DNA from: Eledone cirrhosa
Lineage: Eukaryota
Reading direction: 5' to 3'
Length of the DNA: 64,000 bases
NCBI GenBank assembly: GCA_964016885.1
Contig: OZ024757.1
Coordinates: 21,266,001 to 21,330,000 of the forward strand
Shown here piece after piece: positions 111-56,705 of this stretch; the stretch's first letter is position 1, and each line of letters begins with the position of its first letter. The notes beneath the pieces were generated by a model. The model made no database searches. It was not told the DNA's origin and was given only the letters and a program-made list of their open reading frames with translations. The position numbers and the translations under genes are program-made.

Positions 111-300
111 AACAAAGGAATTGTGGTAAGGAACCAGATAGACCATAACACACCAGAGTACTCAATACTTAGGGTAGTAGAGTGGGTAATAGGAAAAAGT
201 ATGACCCCGACGGCACAGCTCAAGCCGTTTCGACGGCTATTTCAGTCCAGAAATAGCCGTCGAAATGGCTTGAGCTCTGCCGTCGGGGTCATACTTTTTC
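111..300 (-). mobile_element. Asymmetric-palindrome element family P1 (putative non-autonomous Penelope-like) with hammerhead 3' half
   Basis: 51-bp inverted arms 193-243/250-300 (2 mismatches, loop agtcca) plus one-sided extension 111-192, flanked by TA. Contains GAAA-cggc-loop-gccg-TC. Second copy at 37868-38042. Confidence 0.6.
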
Positions 301-3141
301 ATATATATATATATATATATATATATATATATATATATGTATATGTGTGTTTGTGTGTGTGTGTGTGAGCATGTGTGTGTGTGTGTGTGTGCATATGTGA
401 GTGTATATATGTATATATATATTGTGAGCATTTGTGTGTGTCTGAGTGTATTTGTGTGTGTGTGTGTGTGTGTGAATATGTGAGTGTATATATATATATG
501 AATTTATGTGTATGTTGTATATAATGTTCTCAGAAAGAGGCCAGGTAGAAATATGGGGCGGAGAGTAATAGGTTAAATATACATACATATATATATATAT
601 ATGTATATATACACACAGACACAATCACACAATTATACATTACATACACACAATCATACACATACAATCACACACATACATACAGACAAAATCACACATA
701 CATACGCACACACATAAATACACAAACACATACATAAACGTACATCCCCCCACACACACATACAAACATAACCACACACACACTCACACAAACATAACCA
801 CACACACACATACACACATTCCCCCCACACACACATACATACATAAACATAACCACACACAGAGAAACATAACCACATATACACACACATACACACATTC
901 CCCCCACACACACATACATACATAAACATAACCACACACAGAGAAACATAACCACATATACACACACATACACACAAACATAACCACACACAGACAAACA
1001 TAACGACATACACACACACACATTCCCACACATCCCCCCCCCACACACACACACAAACAATCACACACAGACACACATAACCACATACACACACACACAA
1101 ACATAACCACACACAGACAAACATAACCACACACAGACAAACAACCACATACACACACACATTCCCACACATCCCCCCCCACACACAAACATAACCACAC
1201 ACAGACAAACATAACCACATACACACATATACACACACAAACATAACCACACACAGACAAACATAACCACATACACACACACATTCCCACACATCCCCCC
1301 ACACACATACACACACAAACATAACCACACACAGACAAACATAACCACATACACACATATACACACACACACAAACATAACCACATACACACACACACAC
1401 ATTCCCACACATCCCCCCACACACATACACACACAAACATAACCACACACAGACAAACATAAACACATACACACATATACACACACACACAAACATAACC
1501 ACACACAGACAAACATAACCACATACACACACACAAACATAACCACAGACAAACATACACACATACACACACAAACATAACCACACAGAGACAAACATAA
1601 CCACATACACACACACAAATTCCCACACATCCCCCCACACACACGCACATACACACACACAAACATAACCACACACAGAGAAACATAACCATATACACAC
1701 ACACAAACATAACCACATACACACACACACACACATTCCCCCCCCCCCACATACACACACACAAACATAACCACATACACACATACACAAACATAACCAC
1801 ACAGAGACAAACATAACCACATACACACACACACATTCCCACACATCCCCCCCACACACACGCACATACACACACACAAACATAACCACACACAGAGAAA
1901 CATAACCACATACACACACACACAAACATAACCACACACACGCACATTCCCCCCCCCCCCCCTCCCCCACACATACACACACACAAACATAACCACAGAC
2001 AAACATAACCACATACACACATACACACACACACACAAACATAACCACACACACAAACATAACCACATACACACACACACATTCCCCCCCCCCCCCCCAC
2101 ACACACATACACACACAAACATAACCACACACAGAGAAACATAACCACATACACACACACACACAAACATAACCACACAGAGACAAACATAACCACATAC
2201 ACACACATACACCCCCACACACACATATACACCCCCCCACACACACACCCATACACACCCAATCACATGCAATCCAGCTATGATAGAAACCCTCTTCTAT
2301 AGGTTAATGATTTTTCTTTTTTTATATATATCTTTATATTATTTTTGTTAAATATTTTATTTTTAGAATATTACTCCCCCACCCCCGACGTTACTCCCCC
2401 ACCCCAATGATACCTCCCACCCCCAACGTTACCCCGCCCCACCAGGGATTTGGGAGACTTCTACACCAACGTCAATGTCCTCCCACAAACTTAACATCAA
2501 ATTAAAGAAAGAAAACTAAAAAATTAATAGATAAAGAAAAGAATGCACACACACACACACACACACACACACACACATTTATATATGCACCCACACCCAC
2601 ACATATATACACACACACACACATATATATATATATACACACACATACATATATCTATACACACACACACATATCTATATACACACACACACACATATAT
2701 ATACACACACACACATATATATACATACACACACACACACATACATATATATACACACACATATATATATATACACACACACACACATATATACACACAC
2801 ACACATACATATATATATACACACACACATATATATATACACACACACATACATATATATATATACACACACACACATATATATATACACACACACACAC
2901 ACACACATATATATATACACACACACACACACACATATATACACTCACACATATATATATACACACAGACATATTATTACACACCCACATATATATATAT
3001 ATATATATACACACACACATATATACATATATATATATATACACACACACACATATACATATATATATATACACACACACACATATATATATAGATATAT
3101 ATATATACACACACACACATATATATATACATATATATATA
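301..3141. repeat. (TA)n/(CA)n microsatellites and complex CA-rich minisatellite (core acaaacataacc, about 650-2260)
   Basis: Visible low-complexity repeats; overlapping ORFs are V/C/Y/M dipeptide artefacts. Confidence 0.95.
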
Positions 3142-3182
3142 TTTCTTTACAAATGTTTCACAAAGCTACTAGATTACCAGTG

Positions 3183-3920
3183 AAGAAGAAGAAGAAATAA
3201 GAAGGGAAGAAAAGGAAGAAGAAAAGGAAGAAGAAGAAAAGGAAGAAGAAAGGGAAGAAAAAGAAGACAAAGAAGAATAAAAATAAAAATAAAAAGACAA
3301 AGAAGAAGAAGAAGAAGAAGAAGAAAAGGAAGAAGAAAAAGAAAAAGACAAAGAAGAATAAGAATAAAAATAAAAAGACAAAGAAGAAGAAGAAGAAGAA
3401 GAAGAAGAAGAAGAGGAAGAAGAAGAAAGAAGAAGAAGGGAAGAAAAGGAAGAAAAAGAAAAGGAAGAAGAAAAGGAAGAAGAAGAAAAGGAAGAATAAG
3501 AAGAAAAGGAAGAAGAAGAAAAGGAAGAAAAAAGAGGACAAAGAAGAAGAAAAATAAAAAGACAAAGAAGAAGAAGGCGAAGAAGAAGAAGAAGAAGAAG
3601 GCAAAGAAGAAGAAGAAGACAAAGAAGGCAAAGAAGAATAAGAAGAAGACAAAGAAGGCAAAGAAGAATAAGAAGAAGAAGAAGAAGAAGGCAAAGAAGG
3701 CAAAGAAGAATAAGAAGAAGACAAAGAAGGCAAAGAAGAATAAGAAGAAGAAGAAGAAGGCAAAGAAGGCAAAGAAGAATAAGAAGAAGACAAAGAAGGC
3801 AAAGAAGAATAAGAAGAAGAAGAAGAAGAAGGCAAAGAAGGCAAAGAAGAATAAGAAGAAGACAAAGAAGGCAAAGAAGAATAAGAAGAAGGCAAAGAAG
3901 GCAAAGAAGGCAAAGAAGGC
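3183..3920. repeat. (GAA)n-based purine-rich minisatellite (gaagaaggcaaa / gaagacaaa variants)
   Basis: Direct inspection. Confidence 0.95.
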
Positions 3921-55149: not shown

Positions 55150-55885
55150 TAGAGGTGGCACTCAGGGTGGTGAGGGGCCAGAGTGGTGAGGTGGCACTCA
55201 GGGTGGTGAGGTGGCACTCAGGGTGGTGAGGTGCAACTCAGGGTTGTGAGGTGCAACTCAGAGTGGTGAGGTGCAACTCAGGGTGGTGAGGTGCAACTCA
55301 GGGTGGTGAGGTGGCAGTCAAGGTGGTGAGGTGGCACTCAGGGTGGTGAGGTGGCACTCAGGGTGGTGAGGTGGCACTCAGGGTGGTGAGGTGGCAGGGT
55401 GGTGAAGAGGTAAGGTGGTGAGGGGCCAGGGTGGTGAGGTGCCAGGGTGGTGAGGGGCCAGGGTGGTGAGGTGCCAGGGTGGTGAGGGGCCAGGGTGGTG
55501 AGGTGCCAGGGTGGTGAGATGGCACCCAGGTTGGTGAGGTGGCAGGGTGGTGAGGTGCCAGGGTGGTGAGGTGCCAGGGTGGTGAGGTGCCAGGGTGGTG
55601 AAGGGGAAGCATGGTGAGGTGCCAGGGTGGTGAAGGGGAAGCATGGTGAGGTGCCAGGGTGGTGAGATGGCACCCAGGTTGGTGAGGTGCCAGGGTGGTG
55701 AGATGGCACCCAGGTTGGTGAGGTGGCAGGGTGGTGAGGTGCCAGGGTGGTGAGGTGCCAGGGTGGTGAGGGGCCAGGGTGGTGAAGGGGAAGCATGGTG
55801 AGGTGCCAGGGTGGTGAGATGGCACCCAGGTTGGTGAGGTGGCAGGGTGGTGAGGGGCCAGGGTGGTGAGGGGCCACTCAATCTG
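55150..55885. repeat. G-rich 16-20-bp minisatellite (gggtggtgaggtggcactca / gggtggtgaggtgcca) with higher-order variants
   Basis: Direct inspection. Confidence 0.9.
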
Positions 55886-56319
55886 GTGAGGGACCAGGGT
55901 GAACTCTCTTTAATGTTATATCACATAGAAACTGTAAAATAGATAACACACTTTTTGATATTTGTATTTATTATATTACATGTACTCACACAGATAGATG
56001 TACACACACACACAAACACACACACATGTACTAACACACACATGTACTCACACAGATAGATGTACACACACACACACACACACACACATGTACTAACACA
56101 CACATGTACTCACACAGATAGATGTACACACACACACAAACACACACACATGTACTAACACACACATGTACTCACACAGAGATATATATACACACACTCA
56201 CAAACACTATAACATATACATGCACATACTTACACATTCACAAAGACACGCACTTACACAGATACAGATCAGCACTCACACCACAGTGTGTGTGTGTGTG
56301 TCTATAGATATATATATAT

Positions 56320-56705
56320 GTCTGTCTGATGGTAGCTAAGATGCTTCCATAGGTGGTATGCCGGTTGAGTACTCTATGCTCTTACAGAGCAGAGTATGGT
56401 AGAATAGAAAACGAAAAATCAGTGATGCATCTGAACTCAATTTATTGTGTGTTACAATTGTTTCGCCGGCAGACAGCTCGAGGCGCGATCATTGTGTGGA
56501 TCTGTCTGATTCTGGACCCGCAGGTTCGACGGACATGTCTAATGATTTTGGAGCATATTCTCCGAAATCATTAGACGTGTCCGTCGAACCTGCGGGTCCA
56601 GAATCAGACAGATCCACACAATGATCGCGCCTCGAGCTGTCTGCCGGCGAAACAATTGTAACACACAATAAATTGAGTTCAGATGCATCACTGATTTTTC
56701 GTTTT
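56320..56705 (-). mobile_element. Asymmetric-palindrome element family P4: 146-bp near-perfect hairpin plus extension, with hammerhead 3' half
   Basis: Arms 56408-56553 and 56560-56705 (2 mismatches, loop catatt); GAAA caattg TA at 56649-56660; extension 56320-56407; TA flanks. Confidence 0.75.

Follow-up and report, generated by a model that had tools for sequence, protein, structure and literature searches.

Introduction

The Hydra clade of Penelope-like elements (PLEs) is defined by the motifs CxCx5C, CxxC-E, CxH, RWK and DKT together with a (TA)n target (PMC8557442, section 11), and an octopus family with (TA)n preference, Hydra-1_Obim, is already in supplement S1 of that paper; statements on published work here and below refer to the passages of each paper that were compared. 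The origin of the inverted repeats and tail of PLEs is named as an open question in PMC8557442 and PMC11167929. Work in vitro with the PLE protein of Anolis has shown cutting and extension on both strands of the target, and two reverse transcription start sites that bound the tail (PMC11167929). Here we describe a window of 64 kb (the whole stretch analyzed, positions 21,266,001 to 21,330,000 of contig OZ024757.1 in the 3.0-Gb genome of Eledone cirrhosa, assembly GCA_964016885.1) that contains eight PLE insertions, designated P1 to P5 by family. These are almost certainly 5′-truncated, head-to-head insertions of five Hydra-clade PLE families in (TA)n. The two arms of an insertion end at two different fixed sites and share one haplotype, and we propose, with a probability of roughly 60%, that they arise from two separate target-primed reverse transcriptions of one RNA.

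Results

Eight PLE insertions in the window

Tandem repeats make up 48% of the window, and all eight insertions (two of P1, three of P2 and one each of P3, P4 and P5) are flanked by (TA)n or TA/CA runs. Two 3′ ends, 75-164 nt apart, are fixed in each family: a tail end (T) and a short end (S), both at short TA/AT motifs, with S lying upstream of T by 78 nt in P1, ~85 nt in P2, 164 nt in P3, 75 nt in P4 and 134 nt in P5. The arms ending at T and at S (the latter being the mirror arms), with the end of a sixth PLE family (P6) and copies of a short interspersed nuclear element (SINE) inside P3, are located as follows.

111..243, minus strand: P1 copy a, T arm, with 78-nt tail and hammerhead 3′ half; a Hydra-type PLE 3′ end
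238..304, plus strand: P1 copy a, S (mirror) arm; stops at the short end, then (TA)n
4957..5112, minus strand: P2 copy a, S (mirror) arm; complete hammerhead, core 5056, predicted cut after 5002
5113..5367, plus strand: P2 copy a, T arm; type I hammerhead and tail of ~85 nt
18057..18947, minus strand: P3 T arm; 164-nt tail, CCGAUGA-core hammerhead, SINE copy inside at 18429-18623
18956..19419, plus strand: P3 S (mirror) arm; variant core 19065-19071, GAAA 19166, separate SINE copy 19191-19300
20293..20392: P2 copy b; S arm on the minus strand, to ~20375, and tail-end stub of ~20 nt
37868..38042, plus strand: P1 copy b; S arm 37868-37907 (internal deletion) and T arm 37908-38042
38948..39122, minus strand: P5 T arm; 134-nt tail, upstream reach only 174 nt
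39121..39311, plus strand: P5 S (mirror) arm; reach 324 nt, beyond the T arm; hammerhead 3′ half only (GAAA 39227)
39715..39988, minus strand: P2 copy c; T arm, complete hammerhead (core 39904), S stub of ~12 nt
56320..56562, minus strand: P4 T arm; 75-nt tail, degenerate CCGUCGA hammerhead core
56551..56709, plus strand: P4 S (mirror) arm; core 56581-56587, GAAA 56649
56757..57343, minus strand: P6, T-only 3′ end; canonical hammerhead core 57018, predicted cut after 56984

The arms are 92-98% complementary at palindromes 193-300, 4964-5273, 18229-19415 and 56409-56704; those of P5 and of the second P1 copy were placed by mapping to family references. Two of the eight insertions (20295-20392 and 39715-39988) have a stub in place of one arm. 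The T arm of P1 copy a is 94% identical to the P1 reference up to the tail end, and its S arm, which forms the palindrome at 193-300, covers 144 to 78 nt from the tail end. In the P2 T arm at 5113-5367 the hammerhead has its core at 5181-5187, GAAA at 5224, a palindromic stem III and a predicted cut after 5235.

The initial annotation had described this layout from the letters alone, and all eight insertions are confirmed; a ninth element proposed at 9105-9280 is not. It consists of a ~30-nt AT-rich arm pair around (TA)13, has no hammerhead by the type I descriptor, and its extension is single-copy (one candidate in the genome search); finding no sign of membership, we excluded it. The elements are indeed dense, the figure being about one per 8 kb (eight in 64 kb) rather than the one per 7 kb first given. 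As also claimed, the families lack mutual sequence identity: comparison of their terminal 300 nt gave no significant similarity (best E 0.06).

The insertions are truncated copies of coding PLEs

The genome was searched with the one-sided extension of each family alone, so that the structure upstream was not selected for. First-look candidates, which are lower bounds and not copy numbers, were 29 for the P2 tail, 1482 for the whole P2 hairpin, and 942, 703, 1273 and 247 for the other four family extensions. Each family includes copies that lack a mirror arm and continue into a long 3′ untranslated region (UTR) and a coding frame. The P1 tail end is shared with copies that have a GIY-YIG frame upstream (loci L075, L236, L238 and L239), and the P2 tail end lies 3′ of GIY-YIG frames in L042, L043, L046 and L047 and of reverse transcriptase (RT) and GIY-YIG frames in L120 (coding copies L042, L046, L047 and L120). 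The same holds for the P3 end with RT and GIY-YIG frames (L244, L246, L247, L248), the P4 end with a GIY-YIG frame (L250, L255) and the P5 end in coding copies L240 and L241. RT frames with YRDD are found upstream of the ends in P1, P2 and P5 and an RT frame in P3; in P4, shared sequence ties only the nuclease frame to the end. In L240, two direct copies of the P5 end, that is, tandem pseudo-long terminal repeats (pLTRs), surround a 785-codon RT-GIY-YIG frame, and inverted ends surround RT frames in L236, L238, L239, L247 and L248. Since all five ends run into coding PLE bodies, the short elements represent autonomous families in truncated form, as the initial annotation had supposed in deriving them from PLEs and in anticipating partners with RT and GIY-YIG that share their ends (the longer copies carry one or both frames). 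Its further suggestion of separate non-autonomous or retrozyme-like elements is not supported, because the ends continue into coding PLEs and no tandem short units are seen at the examined loci. The structure is thus of a known kind; the families are new, and they are not a new element class.

Assignment to the Hydra clade rests on predicted protein motifs. Natural frames of each of the five families contain the linker CxCx5C, and CxxC and CxH around conserved E and N; L240 (P5) also has RWR and DKT, the fetched copies of the other four families being 5′-truncated or nested. GIY-YIG follows RT, as the C-terminal domain, in L240, L241, L129 and L120, which rules out a Naiad/Chlamys-type PLE with its N-terminal endonuclease, and a Neptune-type label was dropped in favor of Hydra on the motif definition of the clade. 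The tail end is flanked by a TA- or CA-type simple repeat at 138 of 145 loci. The GIY-YIG domain can be aligned across the five families (33-43% pairwise identity). The L240 protein has 341 homologues at E < 1e-10, none usefully named among the 120 listed, and the best-scoring one with a species name is from Argonauta hians. A model of the P5 protein (predicted local distance difference test score, pLDDT, 78.6) has an RT fold matching telomerase (Z 16.0, root-mean-square deviation (rmsd) 4.9 over 283) and DRT2 (Z 16.4), a fold that by itself does not separate PLEs from other RTs; the PLE assignment rests on the motifs. The top four matches of the nuclease model are all of GIY-YIG type, namely I-TevI (Z 6.4, rmsd 3.2 over 83), T4 EndoII, PD-T4-3 and the UvrC GIY-YIG domain, at Z 6.4-4.7, with the fifth row at Z 3.0. 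Weighing against the assignment are the low confidence of that model (pLDDT 62), for which Foldseek found no match at E < 0.001, and the Pfam matches of P1 to P5, all of which fall under the curated cut-offs (best GIY-YIG E 0.006; PF01541 matched below cut-off in three of the five families). Sequence searches against the PDB gave nothing significant.

Two other classes were considered and rejected. A Tc1/mariner-type miniature inverted-repeat transposable element (MITE) would have symmetric terminal inverted repeats (TIRs), and there are none: the tail is one-sided in 149 of 152 pairs and the centers vary. A non-LTR retrozyme is excluded since copies at the tail-anchored loci are either head-to-head, solo, or long and coding, with no head-to-tail short units. 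The 3′ UTR of P5 (L240:4750-9350; also in L184, L185, L193, L198 and L204) is ~4.6 kb long and largely microsatellite, so that P5 spreads TA/TG repeats, targets for itself and for the other families.

Nearly all inverted pairs join an S arm to a T arm

A mirror arm was scored at 90 of the 145 tail-anchored loci, and in 76 of the 90 it ends within 10 nt of S. Across all loci we found 157 outward-facing pairs, of which 152 were resolved (of the five dropped, three have arms that do not meet and two are unresolved; only ends ≤13 nt from S or T were counted): 149 are S+T, three are T+T (L030, L067 and L106) and none is S+S. This count includes 30 P2 loci picked by likeness to the whole hairpin; the pairs reached other than via the tail-anchored search are S+T in 33 of 33 cases, with six extensions of tail-anchored loci excluded. 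Automatic locus classes contained a few microsatellite mismatches (such as L192, L201 and L043) and misses (L041 and L078) and were not used for the pair counts. Copies found through upstream sequence end at S, at T or elsewhere in 17, 6 and 1 cases for P4 and in 20, 15 and 2 for P1. S-ended copies number 11 among 25 ten-kb regions, and eight of these 11 have no inverted T arm upstream; such S-only copies end at the same base as the mirror arms, and S therefore appears to prime by itself. As a control, a non-PLE repeat of the window is palindromic in one of 40 scored copies.

The two arms of one copy carry one haplotype. At 96 loci, after purging of alignment-edge artefacts, the arms mismatch in 31 of 996 polymorphic comparisons, as against 280 expected for independent templates, and they share 133 minor alleles and 51 rare variants. 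A compensatory pair in stem II of P3 had suggested that one copy could draw its arms from different subfamilies; this census rejects the idea. The inner ends, in contrast to the outer ones, vary independently between the arms: of 116 pairs, not counting the P2 loci picked by the whole hairpin, the S arm reaches further upstream in 34 and the T arm in 25, and reach is equal in 57. In 13 pairs S exceeds T by more than 100 nt; L134 (S reach 2620, T 177) and L144 (1518 and 110), with abutting junctions, are examples. In the youngest family, P5, S is further in seven pairs and T in none. With variable centers among copies and shared variants within each, the claim that the mirror arm is formed anew at each insertion is upheld.

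The arms overlap at 76 of the 149 junctions, are blunt at 15, and are separated by 1-20 extra bases at 49 and by more at nine. Inner ends have hot spots, the share in a single 11-nt bin being 71/145 in P1, 19/55 in P2 and 18/44 in P5, and lower in P4 (11/59) and P6 (9/56). The hot spots lie 137-138 (P1), 260 (P2) and 348 nt (P5) from the tail end, and in these three families, not in P4 and P6, the most frequent inner-end base is the A of YYANW, an initiator-like word. None of the hot spots of P1, P2, P4, P5 or P6 falls at the predicted hammerhead cut, and hot spots may perhaps mark start sites of short pLTR transcripts.

A proposed model with two primings on one RNA

The strict S+T pairing and the shared haplotype would both follow if one RNA were used at two sites. 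In the proposed reaction, the GIY-YIG nuclease would nick both strands of (TA)n; cDNA synthesis would be primed at T by one 3′-OH and at the internal site S by its counterpart; the two cDNAs would extend toward the 5′ end of the RNA, stopping early or at the family hot spot; their 3′ ends would be joined by microhomology or a few added bases; and each joined cDNA would template the second strand of the other. A single successful priming would leave a T-only or S-only copy. The S arm of L134 has 2.4 kb absent from its T arm, and the T arm has the tail absent from the S arm, so that neither was copied from the other's cDNA unless much was later deleted. Cutting and extension of both strands by the Anolis protein (PMC11167929) would provide the chemistry. 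With slightly less assurance than for the origin of the arms, and still on the favorable side of even, we propose that PLE integration is a two-strand, two-site reaction on one RNA with the cDNAs joined head to head.

Several points weigh against this model. In vitro, no difference in start site was found between the two strands (PMC11167929), which leaves the strict S/T pairing with no biochemical explanation. The three T+T pairs are at odds with a single RNA that has two distinct sites, and one RNA is indistinguishable from two RNAs of one locus. The 34 to 25 split in reach is symmetric (p 0.30) and would be matched by perfect fold-back followed by one-sided center deletions, and in half of the pairs the two reaches agree to within 15 nt, which is the expectation under fold-back. 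The census, moreover, depends on the five dropped pairs and on the end tolerance given above, and the searches took the best 40 candidates each, which favors young copies.

Fold-back is the alternative that deserves most attention, and is the cDNA self-priming that the initial annotation had favored: a tail-primed cDNA would fold back and copy itself, the nuclease would trim or join the copy at S, and later deletions would skew the center. It has been proposed for PLEs in PMC3846280, where inverted-junction palindromes of Adineta are read in this way. It accounts for the single haplotype of the arms, for the equal reach in 57 of 116 pairs, and for centers that cluster at short palindromes, such as that of P2; one-sided center deletions of long palindromes do occur. 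A mirror arm so formed, however, is at birth never longer than the T arm, yet S is the longer in 34 of the 116 pairs, including P5 in the window (324 versus 174 nt) and L134, L142 and L144, where the excess is 1.1-2.4 kb. In P5 the arms differ by only 0.9%. We regard self-priming as unlikely, though still a substantial alternative, because P5 leans entirely the other way (7 versus 0) and because S-only copies, ending at the same base as the mirror arms, are common (8 of 11). Independent arm lengths could also be had, with no strand displacement, from two RNAs of one locus held on an asymmetric protein dimer, one primed at T and one at S; this would explain the rare T+T pairs, and it agrees with the predicted dimer of the Anolis protein (PMC11167929) and with a palindromic stem III that favors RNA dimers (PMC4209133). 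It must, though, draw both RNAs from the same source locus nearly always (31 versus 280 mismatches) and needs a built-in asymmetry to avoid S+S and T+T, and we consider it improbable.

The remaining explanations fare worse. Fixed non-autonomous hairpins (MITE-, HINE- or retrozyme-like) moving as a unit would give full-length matches to a whole-P2-hairpin query, as seen in all of the best 40, and the hot spots of inner ends point the same way; tail-anchored searches, however, recover varied centers, solo ends and long coding copies, with no symmetric TIRs and no tandem short units. The three differences that recur between P2 arms fall either at edges of the alignment or within a small palindrome of the tail, and hence there is no inherited arm asymmetry; we judge such elements very improbable. 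That the palindromes are chimeric fold-back reads in the assembly is next to negligible: the arms have diverged by 0.9-5.5%, outer ends fall at fixed bases across loci, and the P3 arms carry separate SINE insertions. Raw reads (Illumina restriction-site-associated DNA from three samples, possibly not of the window's species and mostly 90-99% alike) show S joined to (TA)n, in 350-432 reads in each of two runs for P5 and in 193-249 reads in each of three runs for P2. Joints at the center are few, which would fit chimeras: one strand-switch joint at the P5 hot spot was found in four reads of one of the three runs, and for P2 none was listed at a 10% threshold. The raw reads thus bear out the short ends of P5 and P2 and one P5 joint, and not a P2 joint.

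Hammerhead motifs

A strict type I hammerhead descriptor matched the window four times, in P2 (5181 plus, 5056 minus, 39904 minus) and P6 (57018 minus), and matched none of 20 shuffles. Among P1 to P5 in the window a complete canonical hammerhead is thus present only in P2. The P3 and P4 copies have the stems with altered cores (CCGAUGA and CCGUCGA), and those of P1 and P5 have the GAAA-stem III-UH half only, the 5′ core being present in longer copies elsewhere, where the full motif lies in the terminal repeat on the coding strand. Hammerheads had been ascribed to five elements, which holds for P2 in canonical and for P3 and P4 in variant form, and not for P1 and P5, with half a motif in the window. 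The core is canonical in P2; across copies it is also canonical in 15 of 18 of P5 (CUGAAGA), has U3-A8 in 11 of 11 P1 copies, and is CCGAUGA in 25 of 28 P3 and CCGUCGA in 23 of 30 P4 copies. Single-sequence folding gave the hammerhead fold for P1 only and in part for P2 and P3, and an Rfam scan returned no hammerhead family among the best 150 of 319 matches, these being microRNA models on microsatellites and hairpins, all below the gathering score. Most copies extend upstream of the predicted cut, so that their templates were uncut, and the hammerhead is probably a passenger of the pLTR, mostly uncut in the template.

In a single case (L205:1209-1638) the P5 arms are joined via the 8-nt stem I of the hammerhead, with the T arm beginning at the predicted cut. 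The flanks of L107, L113, L116, L088 and L103 contain further unrelated hairpin elements with CTGA(T/C)GA cores, suggesting many more PLE families of the same layout.

A sixth family and other repeats

P6, which the initial annotation had overlooked, is young, with copies 99% alike and at least 1028 first-look candidates. RT (YVDD) and GIY-YIG frames are found in L295 and L303, and its linker, of CX4CxxC type, is Neptune/Nematis-like and not Hydra. It obeys the S/T rule, with a mirror arm ending 56-57 nt from T at 12 of 25 loci. Older P6 fragments lie at 17472-17537 and 58433-58497.

Other palindromes and inverted repeats are present in the window. A perfect 126-nt palindrome at 25459-25608, between (TA)n runs, is built from the 3′ end of a non-PLE repeat that is common and bears a (GAT)n tail, the repeat used as the control above. 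A 227-nt palindrome at 33554-33780 surrounds a SINE 3′ fragment, its arms running into unique-looking flanks, and an inverted pair of another repeat (32322-32468 and 32655-32802) has a SINE copy in its TA-rich center. The inverted pair 7713-8121 and 16201-16609, 8 kb apart and 98.5% identical, resembles the 3′ end of a long interspersed nuclear element (LINE) with a zinc-finger-like frame; a second pair (28334-28623 and 30289-30579) is 1.7 kb apart and 88% identical. At 13871-13908 a 38-nt near-perfect palindrome lies within another repeat.

Discussion

The elements themselves are ordinary PLE remnants, and what they offer is a rule. The S+T pairing, shared haplotype and independent arm lengths can together be put to the existing in vitro assay as a sharp prediction. 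If true, two-strand, two-site integration would account at once for the presence of an inverted pLTR, for a tail on one side only and for 3′ ends of two classes, and short transcripts from the pLTR initiator would be a standing source of small hammerhead-bearing hairpins. At eight in 64 kb such hairpins could be a large putative source of double-stranded RNA, and being MITE-like in look they could be mis-annotated as DNA transposons. We found no statement of a one-site-per-strand rule in the literature, for which coverage of subscription journals was thin, and 'twin priming' in none of the papers that use 'pLTR', in a mostly open-access literature.

As in the reaction proposed here, LINE-1 twin priming copies a single RNA from primers on the two target strands and unites the cDNA ends through microhomology; the second LINE-1 site is variable and the pieces do not overlap, whereas these families have a second site that is fixed and close to the first, so that the arms overlap and form a palindrome. 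The Anolis Poseidon element PAc resembles these families in having two internal RT starts that bound the tail, extension of both strands, an AT-rich target and uncut RNA as the main template (PMC11167929). It belongs to a different clade, and in the passages compared two-strand extension is not tied to inverted insertions or to a rule of one site per strand.

The minimal type I hammerheads of PLEs in PMC4209133 likewise have a palindromic helix III and include the U3-A8 core variant of P1, and the opposite-strand motif pairs 100-700 bp apart ascribed there to truncated PLEs are seen here as well. Absent from the parts of that paper compared are the core with C4 (P3) and the one with C4/U6 (P4), and loop II is long here (80-120 nt in P3 and P5). 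With the Hydra clade (PMC8557442) the families share RT followed by GIY-YIG, the linker, CxxC/CxH, RWK-type and DKT motifs, (TA)n and the terminal-repeat hammerhead. They differ in that five families only 33-43% identical in the nuclease coexist in one genome, that three have non-canonical hammerhead cores, and that the P5 unit is ~7.6 kb with long 3′ UTRs (~4.6 kb in P5), against 'generally under 3 kb' in PMC8557442. One of P1 to P5 may be a relative of Hydra-1_Obim. Non-LTR retrozymes (bioRxiv 10.64898/2026.07.22.740005) have in common with them a type I hammerhead, PLE ancestry and non-coding short copies; those are head-to-tail tandem units, and these are head-to-head truncations of coding elements.

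The closest likeness is to the inverted pLTR and 'tail' of published PLEs (PMC3846280, PMC8557442 figure 2, PMC8969392), in which an inverted, 5′-truncated copy lies against the 5′ end, a tail is often present on just one side and the junctions contain palindromes. Tails here are longer, at 75-164 nt (56 in P6) versus 30-40, and a single tail is the rule almost without exception (149 of 152), with independent arm lengths, features absent from the passages on published PLEs compared. The mirror arm and one-sided tail in (TA)n are nonetheless the published layout of inverted pLTR plus tail.

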